Below, one piece after another: positions 39,756 to 52,543 of a DNA stretch of 64,000 bases. Each line of letters begins with the position of its first letter. Position 1 is the first letter of the stretch. The stretch comes from Gemmatimonadales bacterium. Its GTDB lineage: Bacteria; Gemmatimonadota; Gemmatimonadetes; Gemmatimonadales; GWC2-71-9. The position numbers and the translations under genes were made by a program. A model generated the notes under the pieces. It searched no databases and had not been told where the DNA came from. It worked only from the letters and a program-made list of their open reading frames with translations. The DNA is taken from contig JBFJCP010000006.1 in the NCBI GenBank assembly GCA_041615815.1, forward strand, positions 1 to 64,000, in the 5' to 3' direction.

Positions 39756-41339
39756 TCAAGGCCCAAGGCGGCGTTTCTGAGGCGCGGATCCGAGGCGCGG
39801 ACCAGCGGTGGACGCAACGTGGGCTGCCAGACGGTCGATCAAGGTCGTGAGCTGATCGTGTCGGGTCCTCACGGTTCGTGCGAAGATCGTGCGTGCCAAG
39901 CCCCAGGACGCGCCAACCGCGAGGGCTGCAGCCACAACACCGGCCACTGGGGCTTGAAGGGCCCCGGCTACCACCCCGAGCAGCGCGCCCCCTCCCCCCC
40001 CACCACCTCCCCCTACGATGCCACCGAACACACCGCCCGCGAAGTTACTCATGCGCTCGTCGATGGTGATGCGCGTCCGTCCGTCGCGCGGCATCACCAT
40101 GATGTGAATGTCCCGCCCACCGGCCCCCTGCCCCGCCCGAGCCGTGCTCCACGTCAGGGAGCGGCCGAGGGTACTCACGTGCCCCACGTCACGCAGCGTG
40201 GCTCGCACGTCCTCGACGAGGATCGCAAACTCCGAATCCGGCACCTCTCCATCGACGGTTCGTTCGAGCCGCAACGACGTCGGGGCGCCGGCAAGAAAGT
40301 TCTTCCGCGGCGGTGAGGGCTCCGGGCGCTGGAGCTGCCGGGCTGCCTGTTCTACTCGCTCCGGCGAGATTCCCACTTGGGCGGCGATTTGCTGTACCGC
40401 TCCAATGGAGAGCGCGCCTTCCTCTGTCGGCTGCTGAACCTGCATCTCGCTGGCGTGCTTGACGATGGATCGAACCTCGGACTCGCTATACCGGCGGCTA
40501 CGTCCGGTGGCGCTCATCAAGGCATCCACCAACTCCTTGGCGCTCGAGTAGCGGTCTTGCGGTCTGATGGCCATCGCTCGAACGAGCACCCGCTCGAGTG
40601 AGCCCGAGAGCTCATCGAGTCGCTTCCGATGCGACGCACTGGCGTCGAGGAATCTCCCCAGCTTGCTGGCTTCCTCGGTGGGCCAAAACCCGGGTGTCTC
40701 GCCGACCATCATCTCGTAGCACACACATGCCAAGCTGTAGACGTCCGTGCGCGCGTCCAGTTCCCGCACGGCTGCTGCCTGCTCGGGGCTCATGTAGCCG
40801 GGCGTTCCCAGGGGGAATCCGGTGCGGGTGAGCTCGATACCGCCCGCGGTGCTGATGGCTCGGGCGATCCCGAAGTCCGCCACCATCGCGTGGCCCTCGG
40901 AGAAGAGGATGTTCTCAGGCTTGAGGTCTCGATGGAGGACGCCCTGGCGATGAGCGTAGCTCACTGCGTCGCCCACGCGCACCGAGATTCCCAGTGCGTG
41001 GTCGACGTCCAGGGGACCCTCGCGGTTCAGCAGTGAGCGCAGCGATCCGCCATCGATGTATGGCATCACGTAGTACAGCCGGCTGTTCGCCTCGCCGGAG
41101 TCGTACAAGGGAACGATGTGTGGGTGCGTGAGCTTGGCCGCGATCTCGATTTCCTTGAGGAACCGCTCGGTACCGATGGACGCGGCGAGATCTGGCCGCA
41201 GCACCTTGACCGCCACTTGCCGATCGTGTTTGAGGTCCCGAGCCAAATACACGGTCGCCATTCCTCCCCGACCCAGGATGCGCTCGAGCGCATACCGCTT
41301 TGCCAAGGCGGAACGGAGAGTTTCGGGTATCTGCGTCAC
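39756..41339 (-). CDS. Ser/Thr protein kinase with C-terminal Gly-rich membrane hairpin
   Basis: GRGGMATV, VAVK, HRDLKPEN, DFG, GTPGYMSPE; GTG start at 41339 chosen. Confidence 0.88.
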   Translation of the reverse strand: MTQIPETLRSALAKRYALERILGRGGMATVYLARDLKHDRQVAVKVLRPDLAASIGTERFLKEIEIAAKLTHPHIVPLYDSGEANSRLYYVMPYIDGGSLRSLLNREGPLDVDHALGISVRVGDAVSYAHRQGVLHRDLKPENILFSEGHAMVADFGIARAISTAGGIELTRTGFPLGTPGYMSPEQAAAVRELDARTDVYSLACVCYEMMVGETPGFWPTEEASKLGRFLDASASHRKRLDELSGSLERVLVRAMAIRPQDRYSSAKELVDALMSATGRSRRYSESEVRSIVKHASEMQVQQPTEEGALSIGAVQQIAAQVGISPERVEQAARQLQRPEPSPPRKNFLAGAPTSLRLERTVDGEVPDSEFAILVEDVRATLRDVGHVSTLGRSLTWSTARAGQGAGGRDIHIMVMPRDGRTRITIDERMSNFAGGVFGGIVGGGGGGGGGALLGVVAGALQAPVAGVVAAALAVGASWGLARTIFARTVRTRHDQLTTLIDRLAAHVASTAGPRLGSAPQKRRLGP

Positions 41340-41588
41340 GCCACCAAGGTAGCCGGGGATGTGGCGCTTCGGAACGTCCAACTCTTCTCGGTGGAGCGCC
41401 ACGTAGCGATACATCTGCTACAAAGTAGGCCATGCCGCGCAGTGATGTGGCCGCAAGGCTCCGCTCCCGAACGACCGCCGAGGGCTGTGTGGTAGGGTGG
41501 TCCGATCACGCCAAGTGGCAATGACTTGTGCGCGGCCCGGTCTTGCTGTCACCGCAACATCAGGTCGTGGGCGGAGGCATCCCCCTCC

Positions 41589-41769: not shown

Positions 41770-43473
41770 ATGCGGATAGGATTCATGGCTTTGCTCGGTC
41801 TGATCGGTGTGGGAGGGTGTGGTGGAGGTGGGGCGGCCGGACCTACGGCGCCCGACGCCCAGGTCTCCTTTGCCTCGCTGGATCTCACGCCCGCGTCGGT
41901 CGCGGTACCCGTCGGCGGCACCGTTCAGCTCGTGGCGACTCCGAGAGACTCGAACGGGAATCCCGTGGGTAGCCTTCCACCGGCCACGTTCTCGAGCAGT
42001 TCTCCAGAAACGGCTGGTGTGGACGACCAAGGTCTTGTGACCGGCAACTTGGTAGGGAGCGCCGTCATTACGGCGAGCGTCACTGCCTCGGGTGTCACCC
42101 ACACCGCGAGCGCAACGGTCGCGGTCACCTCGGGCGAACGGGCTCCGGCAACGGTTACCACCCCCGGCCTTGCCTTTGACCCCGCGTCACTCGCTGTGTC
42201 GGTAGGTGACACGGTCACGTGGGAATTTTCGGGTGCGGTCCACAACGTGACGTTCACTGAGGGAACGCCGCCCGGTGGAAACATTCCCGATCAGCAGATT
42301 GGGAGCGTAGTAGAACGGGAGTTCCCGGATCCCGGGACCTTCAAGTACGAGTGTACCATCCACGCTGGCATGGCGGGGGAAGTGGTGGTCACGACGGGAA
42401 CACCGAGCGTGTTCACCTCGCTCGCCGTGACGCCGACGACCCCCGCCATGGACATTGGACAGAGCGTCCAGTTGACGGTCACGGCGCTGGATCAGTTCGG
42501 CAACGCGATGCCGGGAATGCCAGCACCAACCTTCAGCGTGATCGACGGTTCGATAGCGTCGGTCGACGCCGGCGGGCTCGTGACGGGAGTGAGTGAAGGG
42601 ACCACGACGGTTGTGGCCTCGATCACCCACGACGGTGTGACCCAGACTGCGTCGGCAACGGTGAACGTACGCTCGCCCCAATCGGGCGCCGTGACCGTGA
42701 CAACCCCCAATTTGCGATTCGATCCCCCCACTATATCGATACCAGTTGGCGGGAGCGTGACGTGGCAGTTCTCGGAGGCGGTCCACAACGTGACATTCTC
42801 GGGCGCTGCACCTTCCGGTGGCAGCATCCCGGACCAGGATCCCGGAAACGCCGTTTCACGCTCCTTTACGGCTGCAGGCACCTATGGGTACGAGTGCACC
42901 CGCCATAGCGGGATGGTGGGAGAAGTGGTGGTGGAAGGAGGAGCGGGTCCTTCGGTCTTCAGTTCGCTCGCGCTGTCTCCAATGGAATGGGCGATGCCAC
43001 TAGGTGCGTTCAAGGAATTGACGGCGACGCCCCTCGATCAGAACGGGCTCCCCATTTCGGGACTCCCGGCGCCCTCGTTTACGAGTAGCGATCCGGCCGT
43101 GGCGTTCGTCGACGAGAGCGGCCTGGTCACGACCGGAGGTGAGGGTACCGTCGTTGTCACCGCCGCACTCACCGTCGACGGTGAGACACGAACGGCCACG
43201 ACATCGATCTCGGTGGCGCCGGCCACTGCCGCCGTCGTGCGAATTACTGCGGATTTGTACGAGCCGGATCCGGTCGACATTGCTCCCGGCGGGACGGTGA
43301 TTTGGGAAGTCGGTGGGTCGGCACACAACATGACCTTCGACCTTCCACCTGTCGAGGGAAATATCCCGGATACGGATCCCGGCAATGCCGTTGCCAGGAC
43401 CTTTGCCACCGAGAATGATTACGACTACGAATGCACACTCCATGGCGAGAAAGGACGAGTGCGCGTCCGATGA
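41770..43473 (+). CDS. Lipoprotein with three tandem (Ig-like Big_2 + cupredoxin) modules
   Basis: GGAG RBS, lipobox VGGC; Ig motifs (VQLxAT.D..GN, V...GLVTG); HNVTF...ECTIHAGM, HNVTF...ECTRHSGM, HNMTF...ECTLHGE. Confidence 0.82.
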   Translation: MRIGFMALLGLIGVGGCGGGGAAGPTAPDAQVSFASLDLTPASVAVPVGGTVQLVATPRDSNGNPVGSLPPATFSSSSPETAGVDDQGLVTGNLVGSAVITASVTASGVTHTASATVAVTSGERAPATVTTPGLAFDPASLAVSVGDTVTWEFSGAVHNVTFTEGTPPGGNIPDQQIGSVVEREFPDPGTFKYECTIHAGMAGEVVVTTGTPSVFTSLAVTPTTPAMDIGQSVQLTVTALDQFGNAMPGMPAPTFSVIDGSIASVDAGGLVTGVSEGTTTVVASITHDGVTQTASATVNVRSPQSGAVTVTTPNLRFDPPTISIPVGGSVTWQFSEAVHNVTFSGAAPSGGSIPDQDPGNAVSRSFTAAGTYGYECTRHSGMVGEVVVEGGAGPSVFSSLALSPMEWAMPLGAFKELTATPLDQNGLPISGLPAPSFTSSDPAVAFVDESGLVTTGGEGTVVVTAALTVDGETRTATTSISVAPATAAVVRITADLYEPDPVDIAPGGTVIWEVGGSAHNMTFDLPPVEGNIPDTDPGNAVARTFATENDYDYECTLHGEKGRVRVR

Positions 43474-44567
43474 CGAAGCTATGGATCTTGACACCGGCTC
43501 TCTGTCTCGCTCTCGGTGTGACAGGGATAGAAGCCCAATCGCTGCTCGATCGTCCGCCGAACGTCTCGGGGGATTGGGTCGCCAACGCGGGCACGGTACA
43601 GTTCAACTTTCTCCACCGGTTCATGGTAAGTGACGCCCCCGTCCGGAAGATCAGCAATTTCCCCACTTTCCTGATTGGTGTGGGTCTGCCAGGAGCGCTG
43701 ATGGTTGGCGCGCATTATGCCACCAACTCGACGCTCGCTCCTCGTTTCCCCAACGAGTGGGAGTTCTTTGCCCGTCTGGCGCCATTGTCCGAAGATCGCG
43801 GGGCGCCGATCGATCTCGGGGGTCAAGTCGGATACAACCTGGCTGCAGAAGGCCTGGACGGTGAGCTCTCCGTGGCCAAGCGGGTAGGACCGCTTCGGCT
43901 CATCGCCGCGGCCCGAGTGCTTGCAGATCCCTTTGCAGAGGGCGAGGTGCTCTTCGCCATGGGTGGAGGGGGCACGTTACGAGTTAGCCGGTACCTTGCC
44001 CTCGCCGGTGATATTGCAGGTCTCACCAAGAGGGACGAGGATCGCGGCGAGAAGCCCGCTTGGAGCGCCGGCGTGCATCTTGCCATCCCCAACACCCCGC
44101 ATACGCTATCTCTCCAGGCCACCAACACGAATACAGCGACGCTCCAAGGCCTTTCCCGCGGTGACAGCGAGATTCGTTACGGTTTCGAGTTCACGGTTCC
44201 TGTCACGCTGTCGCGGTTCTTTGGGCGGCGACGCCCGCCACGCAGACCGCAACCGACAGCAGACTCGCTCCGCGCACCTTTGGTTGCCCAGGAGGCGGAC
44301 TCAACGGGCGAAGTGATCGGCACCGTCATTCGCCAAATGAAGTTTCCGCAGAATCGGCTCGAGATCGAAGTGGGAACGACGATCGTGTGGGAAAACGCGG
44401 ATCCACTGGCCCACACCGTCACTGCCGACGACGGCAGCTTTGACTCGGGGTTGATCCAGCCCGGTGAGAAATGGAGCTACACGTTCACGCGGGTTGGGGA
44501 CTACAGCTTCTTCTGTACTCCCCACCCGTTCATGACCGGGATCGTGATTGTACGAGGCACGCCATGA
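43470..44567 (+). CDS. Predicted beta-barrel (DUF5777-like) fused to a C-terminal amicyanin/plastocyanin-like cupredoxin
   Basis: Signal peptide; FNFLHRF, amphipathic strands, HTLSLQATN; WENADPLAHTV...FCTPHPFM; ATGA overlap. Confidence 0.72.
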   Translation: MTKLWILTPALCLALGVTGIEAQSLLDRPPNVSGDWVANAGTVQFNFLHRFMVSDAPVRKISNFPTFLIGVGLPGALMVGAHYATNSTLAPRFPNEWEFFARLAPLSEDRGAPIDLGGQVGYNLAAEGLDGELSVAKRVGPLRLIAAARVLADPFAEGEVLFAMGGGGTLRVSRYLALAGDIAGLTKRDEDRGEKPAWSAGVHLAIPNTPHTLSLQATNTNTATLQGLSRGDSEIRYGFEFTVPVTLSRFFGRRRPPRRPQPTADSLRAPLVAQEADSTGEVIGTVIRQMKFPQNRLEIEVGTTIVWENADPLAHTVTADDGSFDSGLIQPGEKWSYTFTRVGDYSFFCTPHPFMTGIVIVRGTP

Positions 44568-44947
44568 GGTCGAGACTCTGGGGGATCCTGGCGGCCACCA
44601 TCGTGGCGGCCTGCTTTTCGGAGCGCACCGACACGACGAGTCCACCGCTGCAGGGTACGTGCGACGTTTCGCTTCCAGCGGAGCTGCTCGGATCCACCAT
44701 TGTCGCGATCCGTAACTTCAGCTTTGAGCCGGCCCAAGTGCGGGTCGCAGCCGGTGGGACGGTCACCTGGGTGAACTGTGCCCCGGCGGACGAACCGGCG
44801 CACACGAGTACGTCGGATCAGGGCGTATGGGGGACCGAGCTCCTACCCCCGGGGAGTTTTGCCAGCTTTACCTTCACCCAGGCAGGAGCGTTCCCGTATC
44901 ACTGCGAGCCCCATCCGTTCATGCAGGCAACTGTGGTTGTCCAATAG
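44564..44947 (+). CDS. Small cupredoxin (blue copper) lipoprotein
   Basis: Lipobox VAAC; FSFEP, VTWVN, AHTS, YHCEPHPFM; ATGA overlap. Confidence 0.82.
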   Translation: MRSRLWGILAATIVAACFSERTDTTSPPLQGTCDVSLPAELLGSTIVAIRNFSFEPAQVRVAAGGTVTWVNCAPADEPAHTSTSDQGVWGTELLPPGSFASFTFTQAGAFPYHCEPHPFMQATVVVQ

Positions 44948-44953
44948 GTTGCC

Positions 44954-47194
44954 TCAGAAGCCCATCCGCGTCACGAGGGAGTCGAACCGGGGATCGTTGC
45001 GTACAGTCTCGAGCTTGGGCTCGACCCGGAGATACGCGAGCCAGCCCCGCCGCTCTTCGTAACAGCGATCGAGCCATTGGAAGACCGCGTCGGGATCGCC
45101 GAGCGCAACGTGCAGTAGCACGAACGCCACGGGAGATATGTACCCCTCACTACTGAGTTGCTCGAGCTCGACGAGCAGGCGCTCGGTCTCGGCACGACGG
45201 CCGCGCCGCGCTTCCATGTATCCCCAACCCGCCATAGCGTATGCGGCGGTTTTCTGGGCCGTCGCGATGGCGTCACGGAAGGCGGCTTCCGCCTCTTCAA
45301 ATCGACCCAAGGCCGTGTATACGAGACCCAACACGCTGTGTGTCTCATCGGCTTGGGGATCGATGGCCAGTGCCCGTCGTAAGTGTTCAACGGCTTCTTC
45401 GTGCCGTCCGAGGTAGTAGCAGAGCCACCCCAACCCGCGATGTCCCGACACGGATACGGGATCGAGATCCACCGCCATTCGGGCCTCTTGCAGGGCCTCC
45501 ACACCCCGACCAGTCGCAAGGAGCAACCACGCGAACCACTGTCGGGCGGTGGCGTAGGACGGGTTGAGCTCGATCGCTCTCCGGAATTCACGTTCGGCGG
45601 CGGTCCAGTCCCAATCGTAGATGAAGTTGACCCACGCAAGGGATGTGTGCGCTTCCGCGAGCGTCTCATCCAGCTCGAGGGCCCGGCGTGCCTCGACTTT
45701 CGCCTGCTCCATCCGTTCCGCCACAGGGGAACCCCGATAGTCCACCTGGATGGCATGGGCATCGGACAAGCCGGTGTAGGCCAGGGCGTAATCTGGGTCT
45801 TCTTGGATCGCCTGCTCGAAATACTCGATGGCGCGGAGGATATCCTCTGGGGTCCGGAGGTTCCAGTGGTATCGACCGCGAAGGTATGCGTTGTACGCCT
45901 TGACATTGTCCGTGTATCGCCGCGGCCGAAGTTCGCCGAGATCCCGCCATAAAGTTGTCCGGAGCGTCATGACAATAGTTCGGGTAATCTCATCCTCGAC
46001 CGCGAAAATGTCGTCGACTTCGCGGTCATACCGCTCGGCCCAGAGGTGGCGCCCGTCGGATACGTCGGTGAGCCGAGCCGTGATCCGGAGGCGATTGCCC
46101 GACTGTCGGACGGTTCCCTCCAGCACGGTCGACACGCCCAGTTGCGCACCAATGGCTCGGACGTCTTGCCGGGTTCCCTTAAAGGCGAAGACCGACGTCC
46201 GAGATGCGACGTGTAGTCCCTCGACCTTCGTGAGGGCGTGGATGAGTTCGTCGGTGAGCCCGTCACTCAAGTATTCGTTGTCCGGGTCTGGGCTCGCATT
46301 CTCGAACGGCAGCACAGCAATCATTCGAGTGTTTCGGTCTGCAGCGGCGGATGCAGGAGGATCCGTCGAGGTCAAGGCTTCTGTAAACGCCCGAACGGTG
46401 TCAAAGCGCTGAGCCGGATCCTTGGCCAGCGCTCGAGCGATGACTTGGTCCACCACCAAAGGGACTTCACCCCGCTGCGACCGGACTGATGGTGGTGGCT
46501 GGATGGCGTGCTGGGCCATGGTGGCACGAGCGTTGGGCCCGCGAAACGGTGGTTCGCCGGTCAGCATTTCGAACAAAACGCAGGCCAGGCTGTAGAGATC
46601 GCTTCGGGCGTCCAGCTCCCGGTCTGCCGTCACCTGCTCGGGGCTCATATAGGCAGGCGTCCCAACCGCGAGCCCCGGCTCCGTCAACCGATCCGACCCG
46701 GCTGCGGAGATCGCCGTGGCCACGCCGAAGTCCGTCAGGAGGGGCTGTCCTTCGTTGAGCAAGATGTTCTCGGGCTTGATGTCACGATGCAGCACGTTCC
46801 GACGGTGCGCGTAATCCAGTGCACCGGCTACCGCCAGGGTGATCCGGATCGCATCGTGTATCGGCAGTCGCTTTTTCTCGTTGAGTCGGTCCCTGAGGGA
46901 CTCACACCCAACGAAGGGCATGACGTAGAAGAAGAATCCGTCGCATTCGCCGGAATCATGGAGCGGTAGGATCTGGGGATGGGTTAGCCCAGCGGCTATG
47001 CGAATCTCACGAAGGAACCGTGCGGTCTCGTAACCGGTGACCAGCTCGGGCCTGAGAACCTTGATCGCGACCTCACGACCGTGTTTGACATCTTCGGCCC
47101 GGTAGACGGTCGCCATCGCCCCTCGTCCCACTTCTTCCTGGACGGCATAGCGGTCTCCCAAAGCCGCTCGCAGACGTTCAACCGTGCACTCCAT
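44954..47194 (-). CDS. Cytoplasmic Ser/Thr kinase with TolB-like and TPR domains
   Basis: HRDIKPEN, DFG, GTPAYMSPE; IAVLPFEN..YLSDGLTDELI; TPR repeats. Confidence 0.88.
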   Translation of the reverse strand: MECTVERLRAALGDRYAVQEEVGRGAMATVYRAEDVKHGREVAIKVLRPELVTGYETARFLREIRIAAGLTHPQILPLHDSGECDGFFFYVMPFVGCESLRDRLNEKKRLPIHDAIRITLAVAGALDYAHRRNVLHRDIKPENILLNEGQPLLTDFGVATAISAAGSDRLTEPGLAVGTPAYMSPEQVTADRELDARSDLYSLACVLFEMLTGEPPFRGPNARATMAQHAIQPPPSVRSQRGEVPLVVDQVIARALAKDPAQRFDTVRAFTEALTSTDPPASAAADRNTRMIAVLPFENASPDPDNEYLSDGLTDELIHALTKVEGLHVASRTSVFAFKGTRQDVRAIGAQLGVSTVLEGTVRQSGNRLRITARLTDVSDGRHLWAERYDREVDDIFAVEDEITRTIVMTLRTTLWRDLGELRPRRYTDNVKAYNAYLRGRYHWNLRTPEDILRAIEYFEQAIQEDPDYALAYTGLSDAHAIQVDYRGSPVAERMEQAKVEARRALELDETLAEAHTSLAWVNFIYDWDWTAAEREFRRAIELNPSYATARQWFAWLLLATGRGVEALQEARMAVDLDPVSVSGHRGLGWLCYYLGRHEEAVEHLRRALAIDPQADETHSVLGLVYTALGRFEEAEAAFRDAIATAQKTAAYAMAGWGYMEARRGRRAETERLLVELEQLSSEGYISPVAFVLLHVALGDPDAVFQWLDRCYEERRGWLAYLRVEPKLETVRNDPRFDSLVTRMGF

Positions 47195-47863: not shown

Positions 47864-48886
47864 GTGACCGCTCCCATCCTGGCCGTAGTAGCGGCAATCC
47901 TGGCTGTGCTCCTCATCGTGGAATTTGCTCGGCAGCGACGTGCGGTCGAGGCTCGTGAGTTGTACCGGAAGATCTTCAACGACCTCCACATAGGCATCAA
48001 TGTGTGGCATTTGGAGGATCCCTCGGATCCTGGCTCGCTGCGTCTGATCGCATCCAATCCGGCGGCGGCCGCCGCCACGGGCATCCCGAGCGTCAAGTGG
48101 ATTGGTCGAACCATCCTAGATGTGTTCCCGGAGGCGGTTCCGCGGGGTATCGCCGCGGACCTGGCCGAAGTGGCCAGGGTGGGCCGATTGAAGGATCTCG
48201 GCGAGTTGTCGTACGGGGATGCCCGGATTCAGGAAGGCATCTACTCGGTCTTCGCCTATCCGCTTCCGGGACGTTGCACGGCGGTCGCGTTTGAGAACAT
48301 CACGAAGCAGAAGCTCGCGGCCATGGAAGTGGCACGGAAGGCAACGTATGTACAGCTGTTGCAGGAAGTCGCCTGCCGCGCCAACGAAGCAGACTCCATC
48401 AGCGCAGCTCTCGAGGAGACCTTACCACAAATCTGCGAGCACACCGGTTGGGTCGTGGGTCACGCCTACCTGCGGGACGGCAATGGCCCGTCCCTCGTGC
48501 ACACCCGGCATTGGCATCTCGCGAATCCACAATTGTACGACGAGCTTCGTGCCGCAACGGACGCGACACGTTTTACGGCAGGTGTGGGTCTCCCGGGCCG
48601 AGTACTCAACAGCGGAGCCGCTGAATGGGTCGTGGATCTCAGTTCGGCCACGAATGTCCCCCAGGCGAAAGTCGCCGTGGCCTGTGAACTCCGCTCGGCC
48701 TACGCGTTCCCCATACTGCTCGATGGCAATGTGACAGGCGTGTTGGAGTTCTTTGCGACGGATACCTGGGTTCCCGACGAACTGTTGTTGGAGACGATGC
48801 AGCGCGTGGGTCGGCAGTTGGGCCGTGTCATTGAACGGCAGCGTGGGAGCCCGTCGGTGGGATCGTCGGCGGCCCCCGGTTCCTAG
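47864..48886 (+). CDS. Membrane-anchored PAS + GAF sensor protein without output domain
   Basis: N-terminal TM; PAS (NPAAAAATG..IGRTILDVFP, ENIT); GAF (GVGLPGRV, AFPILL..GVLEFF). Confidence 0.72.
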   Translation: MTAPILAVVAAILAVLLIVEFARQRRAVEARELYRKIFNDLHIGINVWHLEDPSDPGSLRLIASNPAAAAATGIPSVKWIGRTILDVFPEAVPRGIAADLAEVARVGRLKDLGELSYGDARIQEGIYSVFAYPLPGRCTAVAFENITKQKLAAMEVARKATYVQLLQEVACRANEADSISAALEETLPQICEHTGWVVGHAYLRDGNGPSLVHTRHWHLANPQLYDELRAATDATRFTAGVGLPGRVLNSGAAEWVVDLSSATNVPQAKVAVACELRSAYAFPILLDGNVTGVLEFFATDTWVPDELLLETMQRVGRQLGRVIERQRGSPSVGSSAAPGS

Positions 48887-48894
48887 AAGCGGGT

Positions 48895-49974
48895 TCAGTC
48901 CTCCACGGCGTACCCTTCACCATAGAACTTGCTGGTGCTTCGAGTGTGGAAAACGATCGCCCTAATGGGATCATACTTGGGGTTCGCCAGGCCGGGGAGC
49001 ACTTCCAGAACTTCGTCTTCCCACACATAGACGGCCATCGGGAAGGACACTCGTGGGGTTCCCAGCTGTGCGACGGTACGGGGTTTGCTCACGCGGTGCG
49101 TCGTGGACGGTAGGCGGTCGTTCGTGATTCGCTGCATGTAGTCGCCCGTGTTGATGATGAGGGAACCCCAAGGGGCGTTCAAGCGAATCCACTTGTTGCT
49201 TTGATGGTTCCATACCTGCAACCCCTCCACGCGAGCCGCCGGGAGGATCGTGAATAAGTCGACATCTTCGTGGCCTAGCAGGCGGCCGGCTCCTGAAGCG
49301 TCCTCGTCTCTTCCGATTGGCGGGTAGTAATTCAATCGCAGGCCAAAATTCGTTCTGGTGAGCGTGGCATCGTAGAAATGGGGATCCACTCCCAAGTACG
49401 TGAAAATGCTCTGCGTGATGGGCAGAATCAGCTTTTCGTGCGCCAGACAAATCTGACGAAAGAACGGCTCGTATTCCGGCAGAGGCCAGAAATCTTCCGG
49501 AGCAAAGTCCTTTTGTCGTGGCTCCATTTCGAATGCGCGACGGCAGAAGACCCACCCCTCGACCAGGTCGGGATGAATATCACTGGTTTCCTTGATAGGA
49601 AAGTATCCCTGGCTCACTGAACCGAACCGTTCGGCGCGATACGCCAACTTTTGATCGAGCGTGGTGCGCGTGAAGAACTCCACGACCTTACCCTCCGCCT
49701 CGTCGTACAGCGATGGGTCGACGCCGTGCCCCACGATAATCGCAAAGCCGATCTCTTCGAGTGCCGACCCGAGCCCTTGGGCAAACTGCTGCCGCCCGGC
49801 TTCTCCACCGCTCCAGAACGGTGTCATATCCACGGTTCGGATCTGGTACTCCTCGTCGAAGACGTCTTCACCGGGCGTCTCTGCCAAATGGTACGTATGT
49901 GCCTTTTGCACCTGATCGAACCGCATAAACTCCTGATTGACGGCACTCACACGTTGGTCTTTCTCCTTGGACAT
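48895..49974 (-). CDS. 2OG-Fe(II) oxygenase, IPNS/DIOX family
   Basis: GFAIIVGHGV, LRLNYYPP, HED (HxD), INTGDYMQRITN, THRV, RVS. Confidence 0.87.
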   Translation of the reverse strand: MSKEKDQRVSAVNQEFMRFDQVQKAHTYHLAETPGEDVFDEEYQIRTVDMTPFWSGGEAGRQQFAQGLGSALEEIGFAIIVGHGVDPSLYDEAEGKVVEFFTRTTLDQKLAYRAERFGSVSQGYFPIKETSDIHPDLVEGWVFCRRAFEMEPRQKDFAPEDFWPLPEYEPFFRQICLAHEKLILPITQSIFTYLGVDPHFYDATLTRTNFGLRLNYYPPIGRDEDASGAGRLLGHEDVDLFTILPAARVEGLQVWNHQSNKWIRLNAPWGSLIINTGDYMQRITNDRLPSTTHRVSKPRTVAQLGTPRVSFPMAVYVWEDEVLEVLPGLANPKYDPIRAIVFHTRSTSKFYGEGYAVED

Positions 49975-50119
49975 CTGGCATCCTTCTCGAGCGGTGGGTT
50001 CACTGGACCTGCAAACGTGGACCTGTCTGGCCGCGGTCGACCCGTCCTCGTATTCTACTCTTCCGGCACCAAGAGACAATGATGGATATACCGTCTCCAC
50101 CTCAAGCCACGTGTGGCCC

Positions 50120-52543
50120 ATGAACCGACTGATCGGCTGTCTTGCCGTCTGTGCTATTCTCATCCCCGATGAGGCTGCTCGAGCCCAGGTGACGGCGGAT
50201 ACCGTGCGTCTCGCCGGGCTGCGCGCGCCGGTCGAGATCCTTCGTGATGTTTGGGGCGTCTCGCATATCTACGCGCAGAACGAGGAGGACCTGTTCTTTG
50301 CACAAGGGTTCAACGCCGCGCGAGATCGCCTCTTCCAGCTCGAGCTATGGCGCCGCCGTGCCACGGGCACGATGGCGGGACTCGTGGGCCGGAGAGCGCT
50401 CGAGCACGATATCGGCGCTCGTTTGCTGCAGTTTCGCGGCGACATGCGTAAGGAGATGCGGCATTACCATCCCCGGGGGCGGAGAATCGTGACTGCCTTT
50501 GTTGCGGGCATCAATGCGTACATCGATTTGACTGTCAGGGTGCCCGAACTGCTTCCATGGGAATTCGCCGCTCTCGAGATCAAGCCCGGCAAGTGGACGC
50601 CCGCCGTCGTGGTCTCCCGTCACAATGGCCTGTATCGAAACGCCAATCGAGAGCTCGAGTTGGCAGCCATCGTCCACTCCCTAGGACCGCAGCAGACAAA
50701 GCAGCTACTGGCGTTCGAGCCCGGCAGCCCTTCCTTGACGCCAGATGCCAGCCTTGATCTCGGGACGCTGGACTCTCGAGCGCTCAGCCTCTACCGAGCG
50801 TCCCGATCGCGGATCCGGTTTGAGCCGCAAGACATGGCTGCTGCGTTCCGCGCCGAGGTGTCGCGCCACGAACCGCCCGATCCATGTAGCCTGCCAGAGC
50901 GGTGTGATGCGTGGGAGCAATTCGATCGCCAGCGGAGCGGCAGTAACAATTGGGTGGTCTCGGGCGCACGGACGTTCAGCGGGGCACCGATGATGGCAAA
51001 TGATCCACATCGTGTGCTGTCCCTTCCATCGCTGCGATACTGGGTACATCTGGTGGCACCGGGATGGAATGTCATCGGTGGCGGTGAGCCGGCGCTCCCG
51101 GGAGTGGCGATAGGACACAATGAACACGGTGCGTGGGGTCTGACGATTTTTGCGGTGGATCAAGAAGATCTCTACGTGTACGACACCAATCCTGCCAACG
51201 AGCGGCAGTACAGGTATGGCAGACGGTGGGTCGACATGCTCGTCGTGTCCGACACCATTCCGATTCGCGATGAAGCTCCCGTGGCCGTGGAGCTGCGCTT
51301 CACTCGGCATGGTCCGGTGTTGTTTCAAGACGAGGCACGGAACCGAGCGTACGCACTTCGAGCGGCGTGGCTAGAGGTGGGCTCGGCACCGTATTTGGCG
51401 AGCCTTCGTATCGATCAGGCACGTAACTGGGAGGAATTTCGCGAAGCCTGTGCCTACTTCTATACGCCGTCCGAGAACATGGTTTGGGCTGATGCCACTG
51501 GGAACATCGGATGGCAAGCGACGGGGATCACTCCACGACGACGCGGGTGGGACGGTCTGCTCCCGGTACCAGGAGACGGACGGTTCGAGTGGGATGGTTT
51601 TGTGAAGGTGGTCGATCTCCCGAGCCGCGGGAACCCCGAGCAGGGGTGGCTCGCCACCGCCAACGATAACAATCTGCCGTCTGGGTATCGTCCGATCGTG
51701 GGTTACGAGTGGACCGATCCGTTTCGGATTTCGCGGATTCGCGAAGTACTTGGATCCAGCCGCCGGCTCACGCTGATGGACATGCAGCGCCTGCAGCATG
51801 ATGAGCTGTCGCTTCCCGCTCGATCCTTAGTGCCCCTTCTCGAAGGACTCGATTATCCCAGCGCTGCGGCTGGTAAGGCCGCGGATCGCTTGCTGCGTTG
51901 GGATTACGTGCTCGATCGCGACTCCGACGGGGCCGCCATCTACGTGTTTTGGGAACAGCGATTGGTGGAGCAAGTCTGGCGTAGGCTCGTCCCGGAGGCC
52001 GTCCACGATCTCATCCGTCCGTCGGATCTCTCACTTCGAAAGGTCGTGGACTGGATCACGGTTCCCGACGGCCGTTTGGGACCGCGCCCCTCCGAGGCGA
52101 GGGACGGTCTCCTCGTTGCCAGCCTCCAAGATGCCGTTACTGAACTGAGTGAATTGCTGGGCGAAGACCAGTCACAGTGGAGATATGGGCTCCTCAAGCA
52201 CGTGTTCTACGAGCACTCCCTGAGCGCCGCTGTGAGGCACGACATGCGGGACAGCTTGGACATCGGACCGCTTCCGCGCGGAGGCTACGGCCACACTGTC
52301 AACTATACCTCCGATAATCTGAACCAAACGAGCGGTGCCACGTTTCGCATCATCGTCGACACCAGCGACTGGGACCGGTCGCTTGGAACCAATGCCCCGG
52401 GACAGTCGGGCAATCCAACGAGCCCGCACTACGGCGACCTGTTTGTACCCTGGGCAGCGGGAAAGTACTTCTCCGTCCTCTACTCCCGCGAGCGCGTAGA
52501 GTCCGCAACGGCCGACGTCATCGTGCTCCATCCCACACGTTGA
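50120..52543 (+). CDS. Penicillin acylase family (Ntn hydrolase, S45)
   Basis: Signal peptide; RDVWGVSHIYA, DRLFQ, GSNNW, ANDPH, PGQSG. Confidence 0.9.
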   Translation: MNRLIGCLAVCAILIPDEAARAQVTADTVRLAGLRAPVEILRDVWGVSHIYAQNEEDLFFAQGFNAARDRLFQLELWRRRATGTMAGLVGRRALEHDIGARLLQFRGDMRKEMRHYHPRGRRIVTAFVAGINAYIDLTVRVPELLPWEFAALEIKPGKWTPAVVVSRHNGLYRNANRELELAAIVHSLGPQQTKQLLAFEPGSPSLTPDASLDLGTLDSRALSLYRASRSRIRFEPQDMAAAFRAEVSRHEPPDPCSLPERCDAWEQFDRQRSGSNNWVVSGARTFSGAPMMANDPHRVLSLPSLRYWVHLVAPGWNVIGGGEPALPGVAIGHNEHGAWGLTIFAVDQEDLYVYDTNPANERQYRYGRRWVDMLVVSDTIPIRDEAPVAVELRFTRHGPVLFQDEARNRAYALRAAWLEVGSAPYLASLRIDQARNWEEFREACAYFYTPSENMVWADATGNIGWQATGITPRRRGWDGLLPVPGDGRFEWDGFVKVVDLPSRGNPEQGWLATANDNNLPSGYRPIVGYEWTDPFRISRIREVLGSSRRLTLMDMQRLQHDELSLPARSLVPLLEGLDYPSAAAGKAADRLLRWDYVLDRDSDGAAIYVFWEQRLVEQVWRRLVPEAVHDLIRPSDLSLRKVVDWITVPDGRLGPRPSEARDGLLVASLQDAVTELSELLGEDQSQWRYGLLKHVFYEHSLSAAVRHDMRDSLDIGPLPRGGYGHTVNYTSDNLNQTSGATFRIIVDTSDWDRSLGTNAPGQSGNPTSPHYGDLFVPWAAGKYFSVLYSRERVESATADVIVLHPTR

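Follow-up and report, generated by a model that had tools for sequence, protein, structure and literature searches.

The known routes by which electrons pass the bacterial outer membrane rest on haem. According to the papers cited here, Cyc2 is a 16-stranded barrel with an N-terminal haem (CxxCH) domain and rusticyanin downstream (PMC13741234), whereas in the porins MtoB and PioB 24-32 strands surround a decahaem protein (PMC5566968). The idea that copper proteins could form an analogue of such porin-cytochrome complexes was put forward earlier for PcoAB, from bioinformatics alone (PMC5566968), and the PcoB barrel, whose pore is electronegative, is described as importing Cu(II) (PMC9210255). 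The subject of the present analysis is a three-gene operon, A, B and C, found in a window of 64,000 nucleotides (the whole stretch of DNA analysed) from a Gemmatimonadales bacterium (assembly GCA_041615815.1, contig JBFJCP010000006.1, positions 1-64,000 of the forward strand). A preliminary description of the operon had suggested a haem-free electron conduit resembling MtrAB or, alternatively, a copper-trafficking system.

Gene B, the core of the module, encodes a predicted outer-membrane barrel fused to a cupredoxin; C usually accompanies it, and A is accessory. The favoured reading, to which we give a probability of roughly 0.45, is that the three proteins form a periplasmic one-electron copper relay anchored at the outer membrane, Cyc2-like in its logic, whose barrel would admit, or gate the entry of, a small dissolved redox partner. 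The operon is likely not a wire through the outer membrane. The barrel-cupredoxin module is real, conserved and apparently undescribed: as the preliminary description had supposed, no account of it was found in the open-licence literature of PMC and bioRxiv.

Comparison with described systems

B resembles Cyc2 and Cyt572 in joining an outer-membrane barrel and a one-electron carrier, predicted to lie on the periplasmic side, in a single chain, and the blue-copper proteins downstream of Cyc2 and Cyt572 recall the copper carriers encoded here (PMC13741234; PMC5566968). Unlike Cyc2, it lacks CxxCH, has 12 strands, bears its type-1 copper domain C-terminally on a linker of 14-94 residues and is accompanied by lipoproteins. 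MtrAB, MtoAB and PioAB share with the operon a barrel co-encoded with several envelope redox proteins, whereas the barrel of B has 12 strands without internal cofactor, haem is missing, and neither a porin of their type nor a decahaem protein is found in A, B and C. The MtrB/PioB model TIGR03509 matched neither B nor any protein of the host genome. A link between B and MtrB-like porins was considered and rejected, as seven of 201 Gemmatimonadota genomes have a match, below cut-off, and only one of them has B.

In PcoAB and CopAB, too, periplasmic copper proteins accompany a small barrel of 10-12 strands. In contrast to PcoAB, the cupredoxins of A, B and C are of type 1 only, without type-2/type-3 (HxH) sites, and the barrel is itself fused to a cupredoxin; the CopB Pfam model matched none of 114 B family members at E 0.05. 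Amicyanin and Neisseria Laz have the type-1 copper fold in common with the three proteins, B carries the amicyanin loop, and A and C are predicted to be lipidated. The cupredoxins of A and B differ from amicyanin and Laz in their fusion to immunoglobulin-like (Ig) spacers or to a barrel. The scores against the amicyanin model TIGR02657 (B 48.7, C 47, A 84) lie below its cut-off of 110.2 bits, and no methylamine dehydrogenase genes were recognised in the loci read.

Domain architecture of the operon

Successive open reading frames share the letters ATGA, at 43470-43473 and at 44564-44567 (Table 1). The Pfam model Copper-bind matches all three proteins above cut-off and Big_2 matches A. The preliminary description was thus right about the chained genes, about A as a lipoprotein with three Ig and cupredoxin modules, about C as a cupredoxin lipoprotein and about a beta-rich middle protein ending in a cupredoxin. 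Its five type-1 copper-like sites exist as five Cys-x2-His motifs with an upstream His, of which four have the axial Met and the third of A does not. By fold and by their His/Cys/His/Met ligands, complete in 4/5, these sites have the sequence signature of type-1 (blue) copper cupredoxins. A motif scan of the three proteins found no CxxCH, again as described before, and no HxH; none gave a Cu-oxidase Pfam match or contains a Met/His-rich segment of chaperone type.

The operon is neither due to chance nor an assembly artefact, because B has many homologues and contigs of sequencing runs agree with the window. A single contig from the possible source run spans the stretch without insertion or deletion, and three contig pieces from an independent soil run cover 42310-45090, the differences numbering 35 over some 2,800 letters (~99% identity). 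At position 44348, a third codon position of B, the window has G and the contigs of three runs have T, a synonymous difference. A scan for promoters and terminators gave nothing above chance.

The AlphaFold2 model of B, built on a 114-sequence alignment, has an ordered N-terminal segment, 12 strands spanning residues 42-246, a linker of low confidence and a cupredoxin (mean predicted local distance difference test score, pLDDT, 90.9; predicted template modelling score, pTM, 0.83; barrel pLDDT mostly >90). The best fold matches of the barrel are 12-stranded outer-membrane channels, namely KdgM-type porins (Z 17.5 and 16.9, the former with a root-mean-square deviation of 2.6 over 177 residues), FapF (Z 17.2, covering B residues 23-245) and COG4313 (Z 16.0). 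Autotransporter barrels come next, PcoB stands at rank 30 (Z 11.2), and MtrB, Cyc2 and Slam are not among the best 50 matches listed. The model thus predicts B to be an outer-membrane barrel. The N-terminal segment, which aligns in fold with FapF from residue 23 and with COG4313 from residue 31, probably plugs it. Outer-membrane barrels with an even number of strands have both chain ends in the periplasm, and the cupredoxin of B should therefore be periplasmic.

The conserved residues of the barrel are H49, R50, E96, E98, N123, D130, R149, D181, W198, H211, N219 and G238. Among these, R50, E96, E98, N123, D130, R149 and D181 are highly conserved and would point inwards as judged by strand alternation, not by model coordinates; by the same alternation the lumen would have a net charge of about -1 and neither Met nor Cys. 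The strand positions of H49 and H211 put them at opposite ends of the barrel. For the second domain the matches are amicyanin and Nitrosopumilus cupredoxins; its loop CTPHPFM is identical to that of amicyanin, and its His/Cys/His and Met ligands are invariant in 74 B sequences. The linker length varies across these 74 homologues over the range given above, which fits a mobile carrier.

A has a lipobox-like motif in 94/119 homologues; the lipobox Cys is conserved in at least 90% of the A alignment and homologues keep the motif Cys-Gly4-Ala. Its homologues have 2-5 cupredoxin modules (116/119 analysed). Under a strict pattern, Cys-x2-His...Met is kept in 117/118 middle modules and in 86/116 of both the first and the last ones, by which equality a potential gradient with Met loss limited to the membrane-distal module was rejected. 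The predicted structure of A shows confident domains in no fixed arrangement (pLDDT 88.4, pTM 0.50). In C, the Cys of the lipobox VAA-C17 is invariant in 74 sequences and directly followed by a conserved tether, C-F-S-[ED]-[RH]. Of its ligands H80/C114/H117/M120, the His/Cys/His set is invariant in the same sequences and Met is kept in at least 90%; a conserved extra pair, C33 and C72, may form a disulfide. Complex prediction with the mature chains of B and C scored 0.00 in two runs, in which controls were not folded, and so speaks neither for nor against a complex.

Table 1. Coordinates of the operon genes and of their domains in the window.
Feature	Position	Strand	Details
Gene A	41770..43473	+	ATG start 41770; 567-aa lipoprotein, (Big_2 Ig + cupredoxin) x3; accessory member
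A signal peptide	41770..41820	+	lipobox-like VGG-C17
A Ig-like (Big_2) domain 1	41866..42132	+	approximate limits
A cupredoxin 1	42145..42393	+	H158/C195/H198/M201
A Ig-like (Big_2) domain 2	42409..42672	+	Pfam Big_2 residues 215-296
A cupredoxin 2	42688..42936	+	H339/C376/H379/M382
A Ig-like domain 3	42955..43218	+	approximate limits; Big-like match 436-467
A cupredoxin 3	43228..43470	+	H519/C555/H558, no axial Met, shortened loop CTLHGEKG
Gene B	43470..44567	+	ATG start 43470; 365-aa predicted outer-membrane barrel::cupredoxin fusion; module core
B predicted Sec signal peptide	43470..43535	+	residues 1-22; mature start probably at conserved Gln23
B conserved N-terminal segment	43536..43592	+	R28, P30, N31, W36; likely barrel plug as in FapF/COG4313
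B predicted 12-stranded beta-barrel	43593..44207	+	residues 42-246; DUF5777-related
B short helix and linker	44208..44312	+	low-confidence, Pro/Ala/Arg-rich linker
B amicyanin-like cupredoxin	44313..44555	+	H315/C349/H352/M355
Gene C	44564..44947	+	ATG start 44564; 127-aa cupredoxin lipoprotein

Relationship to DUF5777 and exchange of the redox domain

B itself gives no match to Pfam DUF5777 (PF19089), one of the models that the preliminary description had named for a profile search. Nineteen of 114 B homologues match that model at E up to 0.05 (best 2.6e-6), B is adjacent to DUF5777 clusters in the ESM Atlas (score 0.96), and HHalign aligns B with eight classical DUF5777 proteins over 207 columns (probability 93.9, E 1.6e-7) with common His-Arg and His motifs, H49 and H211 being kept in the latter. 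On these comparisons the B barrel is distantly related to DUF5777 within one superfamily, homologous over the whole barrel. It differs in not matching the Pfam model, in its fused carrier and in its genomic distribution: the 16/201 genomes that have classical DUF5777 do not overlap with the 61 that have B. The B family forms a separate clade in a quick tree with long branches. No paper naming DUF5777 was found in the literature searched.

In three homologues (P0194, P0227 and P0229) the same barrel carries a C-terminal CxxCH monohaem cytochrome c in place of the cupredoxin, a Cyc2-like design in reversed order. They form one clade inside the B family in the quick tree (support 99). A metagenome scan with P0194 gave no locus, and the next scan returned no member of this clade. 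Redox genes stand beside the barrel at four of the 14 classical DUF5777 loci read: genes for cytochrome c, Rieske and DUF2231 proteins at three of them, and YceI together with a PSCyt1-like lipoprotein at the fourth. A redox role is favoured over copper trafficking because cytochrome c replaces the cupredoxin and because some DUF5777 barrels adjoin cytochrome c, Rieske or YceI genes.

The loci with DUF2231 (L162-L164, from another class of the phylum) are organised as operons of a cytochrome c lipoprotein, a DUF5777 barrel, a Rieske protein and a DUF2231 membrane protein, possibly an envelope-spanning redox chain. Stand-alone classical barrels (L152-L161) have a His-rich insert in loop 3, predicted to be extracellular, which suggests metal capture.

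Conservation and gene neighbourhood

Homologues of B number 2262 among 7999 candidates scored, the named ones belonging to Gemmatimonadales, Longimicrobium and their kin. Two sets of loci were compared. The closest loci are the best 80 of 306 GTDB relatives; fractions refer to loci with enough flank and are biased to close relatives. The phylum sample consists of 201 evenly sampled Gemmatimonadota genomes, in which 40 of the 64 full-length B places, spread over families, were read.

The barrel is present in 61/201 genomes (~30%; one of these, G176, was counted only). It is fused to a cupredoxin in 72/73 closest and 39/40 phylum-spread loci. C lies directly downstream of B in 69/71 closest loci, and upstream of B there is a multi-cupredoxin A in 27/78 and another, single cupredoxin in 18/78; all three genes occur together in 25/80. 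Among the phylum-spread loci, 25/40 have an adjacent cupredoxin gene and 4/40 a multi-cupredoxin A. The C profile matches 45/201 genomes, all barrel-bearing, and none of the 140 without barrel, some matches being to the cupredoxin domain of B itself; 31/32 full-length C places adjoin a barrel gene, and the remaining one is at a contig start. The scan for A, which scored six candidates in each genome, detected the multi-module form in 4/201 genomes, always beside B, and single Ig and cupredoxin modules also in two genomes without barrel. The conserved unit is therefore B with C: because multi-module A is so much rarer than B, the joint conservation expected by the preliminary description holds for the pair and not for the three genes. 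B is contained in soil and sediment metagenomes, and at two divergent metagenome loci, L167 and L169, probably outside the phylum, a cupredoxin gene directly follows it.

Flank genes were counted within 2.5 kb over 120 loci (the 80 closest and the 40 phylum-spread). Just two kinds recur, CHRD genes at 15/120 (11/80 + 4/40) and AraC genes at 13/120 (5/80 + 8/40). The former encode CHRD-domain lipoproteins (e.g. L133:7412-7870 and L092:7202-7723, with 13 more loci). The latter are of a type with a His-rich cupin-like N-terminus (e.g. L136:4955-5722, L147:4503-5267 and L115:4538-5356, with 10 more loci), possibly a regulator, and no such gene stands beside the operon in the window. At L087, L094 and L109 a CopD-like gene is directly upstream of B, with cytochrome c and redoxin-like genes downstream. 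In a single record, P0134, a TonB-dependent receptor reads through into a complete B, either as a real fusion or through a lost stop codon.

Proposed function and alternative explanations

As a periplasmic relay, the module might work as follows. The copper domain of B would hang in the periplasm beneath the pore, and the barrel, plugged and conserved in the charged residues of its lumen, would admit or gate a small dissolved redox-active solute, for instance a metal ion such as Fe(II) or Cu, or else a quinone-like mediator. The copper of the tethered domain would give or take one electron and hand it over by collision to C, a lipoprotein of the same membrane. In operons that include A, the 2-5 Ig-spaced cupredoxins of that protein could add capacity and reach to periplasmic acceptors, possibly oxidases, NirK, NosZ or cytochromes encoded elsewhere. 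B would then be a copper version of the Cyc2 design, one that searches keyed to CxxCH would miss, and the DUF5777 barrels, so far unstudied, would gain a first testable role. B is small and single-chain and should be coloured once loaded with copper, which makes it easy to test.

Several observations weigh against this relay. No substrate or electron-partner gene is conserved near the operon, the flanks of the 120 loci varying between genomes, and there is no link to nosZ, which occurs in 25/61 barrel genomes and in 55/140 without barrel. An adjacent cupredoxin gene is missing at 15/40 phylum-spread loci, nine of which share one housekeeping neighbourhood, and 13/66 sampled homologues are barrel-only forms, some perhaps truncated. 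The cytochrome swap appears as a single event on the quick tree. At ten of the 14 classical DUF5777 loci no redox gene lies within 1.5 kb, and the barrels there bear a His-rich loop that points to metal binding. Finally, the facing of the lumen residues is deduced from the alternation of the sequence.

The His-rich loop 3 of these ten cousins would rather suit capture, buffering or detoxification of copper or another metal, in which a PcoB-like channel would let the metal in and the cupredoxins would bind or re-oxidise it. This explanation, which we consider unlikely, agrees with the presence of PcoB among the fold matches, with conserved acidic residues facing the presumed lumen, with the CopD-like genes (3/80 loci), the AraC genes and a gene at one locus that we take to be heavy-metal-ATPase-like, with the receptor read-through into B, and with up to five A modules that would raise the binding capacity. 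It accords less well with complete His/Cys/His/Met sets, typical of electron carriers, with the lack of Met/His-rich segments in the three proteins and with a presumed lumen nearly neutral in net charge and devoid of Met and Cys; cytochrome c can moreover substitute for the cupredoxin, and copper-homeostasis genes are not conserved neighbours. The copper-trafficking alternative of the preliminary description is less favoured than a redox role. If metal uptake were nevertheless the function, the module would still count as a new metal system of the outer membrane, in a phylum that is common but little studied. A channel that exports or assembles the partner redox lipoproteins, carrying them to the surface as FapF or Slam might, after recognition of their N-terminal tether, is very unlikely in our estimate. 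FapF ties for the best fold match, plug included, C-type lipoproteins, which have the C-F-S-[ED]-[RH] motif in common, were not found apart from the barrel, and barrels of this superfamily often adjoin small lipoproteins; KdgM-type solute porins score as high, however, a shared fold shows no function, and the barrel bears its own cupredoxin at nearly every phylum-spread locus, including loci where no cupredoxin gene adjoins it.

The conduit originally proposed would have A and/or C on the surface and the B cupredoxin inside, electrons crossing by a bound metal, by aromatic hopping or along a threaded lipoprotein tether. A barrel, an Ig-spaced multi-copper lipoprotein and a small shuttle are indeed co-encoded at 25/80 of the closest loci, the tether beside the lipid-bearing Cys of C is conserved, H49 and H211 are kept as far as classical DUF5777, and the axial ligand is often altered in the end modules of A, not in the middle ones. 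An MtrAB-type conduit is nonetheless unsupported, because the barrel is about half the size of MtrB and lacks a conserved internal Cys/Met site, and because the cupredoxin should be periplasmic; with 12 strands against the 24-32 of MtoB/PioB (PMC5566968), the barrel is too small to house a cupredoxin. The two His residues stand at opposite ends, multi-module A is rare, its model shows no fixed domain packing, and Ig spacers would, from usual domain sizes, separate the copper sites beyond tunnelling range. A lipidated cupredoxin need not be exposed at the surface either, gonococcal Laz being described as not exposed (PMC6277709). For these reasons, and with haem systems encoded in the same genome (see below), we judge a haem-free conduit through the membrane distinctly unlikely; of the earlier electron-transfer proposal, a redox role remains likely from the cytochrome c swap in relatives, whereas a transmembrane wire does not. 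The barrel might also serve as a plain anchor, which by an OmpA-like two-domain logic would keep at the outer membrane a general periplasmic carrier serving dehydrogenases, peroxidases or oxidases, with nothing passing the pore. The plugged narrow barrel, the long variable linker, the amicyanin-type loop and the potential partners encoded in the genome (NirK, NosZ, many cytochromes) would be in keeping with this, to which we nonetheless give little credence: the strong conservation of lumen-side residues, far beyond the need of an anchor, that of outer-loop residues and the barrel-only homologues suggest that the barrel has a job of its own, and lipidation of the kind predicted for A and C would suffice.

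A broader reading, which we regard as rather doubtful, would make DUF5777-type barrels the outer-membrane ports of a widespread, so far undescribed class of systems for extracellular electron exchange with a swappable redox module (type-1 copper, cytochrome c or Rieske). Gemmatimonadota would have an all-copper route, made of a porin-cupredoxin fusion, as a counterpart of Cyc2 in copper, and a multi-copper Ig ladder, that exchanges electrons with outside metals or humic quinones. In that case, abundant soil and sediment bacteria would trade electrons with such metals or quinones.

Redox inventory of the host genome and genes around the operon

The host genome (G000) encodes a NirK fused to cytochrome c (TIGR02376 above cut-off) and NosZ, at G000:C13:6181-7563 and G000:C29:44194-46005, respectively. 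It also encodes three proteins that combine an N-terminal CxxCH with a barrel-like body and that we take from their motifs to be Cyc2-like. The copper module is thus no stand-in for haem, since Cyc2-like and multihaem proteins are encoded in the same genome. Two of the three, each with a single N-terminal CxxCH (G000:C8:68117-69214 and G000:C36:4339-5508), have no NCBIfam match. A haem-based envelope cluster adjoining a two-component system lies at G000:C2:70768-80032 (L245:4769-14033). It comprises a Cyc2-like CxxCH and porin protein, a plastocyanin-like protein, two tetrahaem cytochromes, an NHL-repeat lipoprotein, a six-haem c7-type cytochrome, a 633-residue unannotated barrel-like protein and a dihaem cytochrome, and is a candidate porin-cytochrome system.

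In the window, the operon is flanked on the opposite strand by Ser/Thr kinase genes (39756-41414 and 44954-47194, both on the minus strand), one with tetratricopeptide repeats; such kinases are not conserved as operon neighbours among the relatives' loci. Further downstream are genes for a PAS/GAF membrane protein without output domain (47864-48886, plus strand) and for a 2-oxoglutarate-Fe(II) dioxygenase (48895-50163, minus strand).

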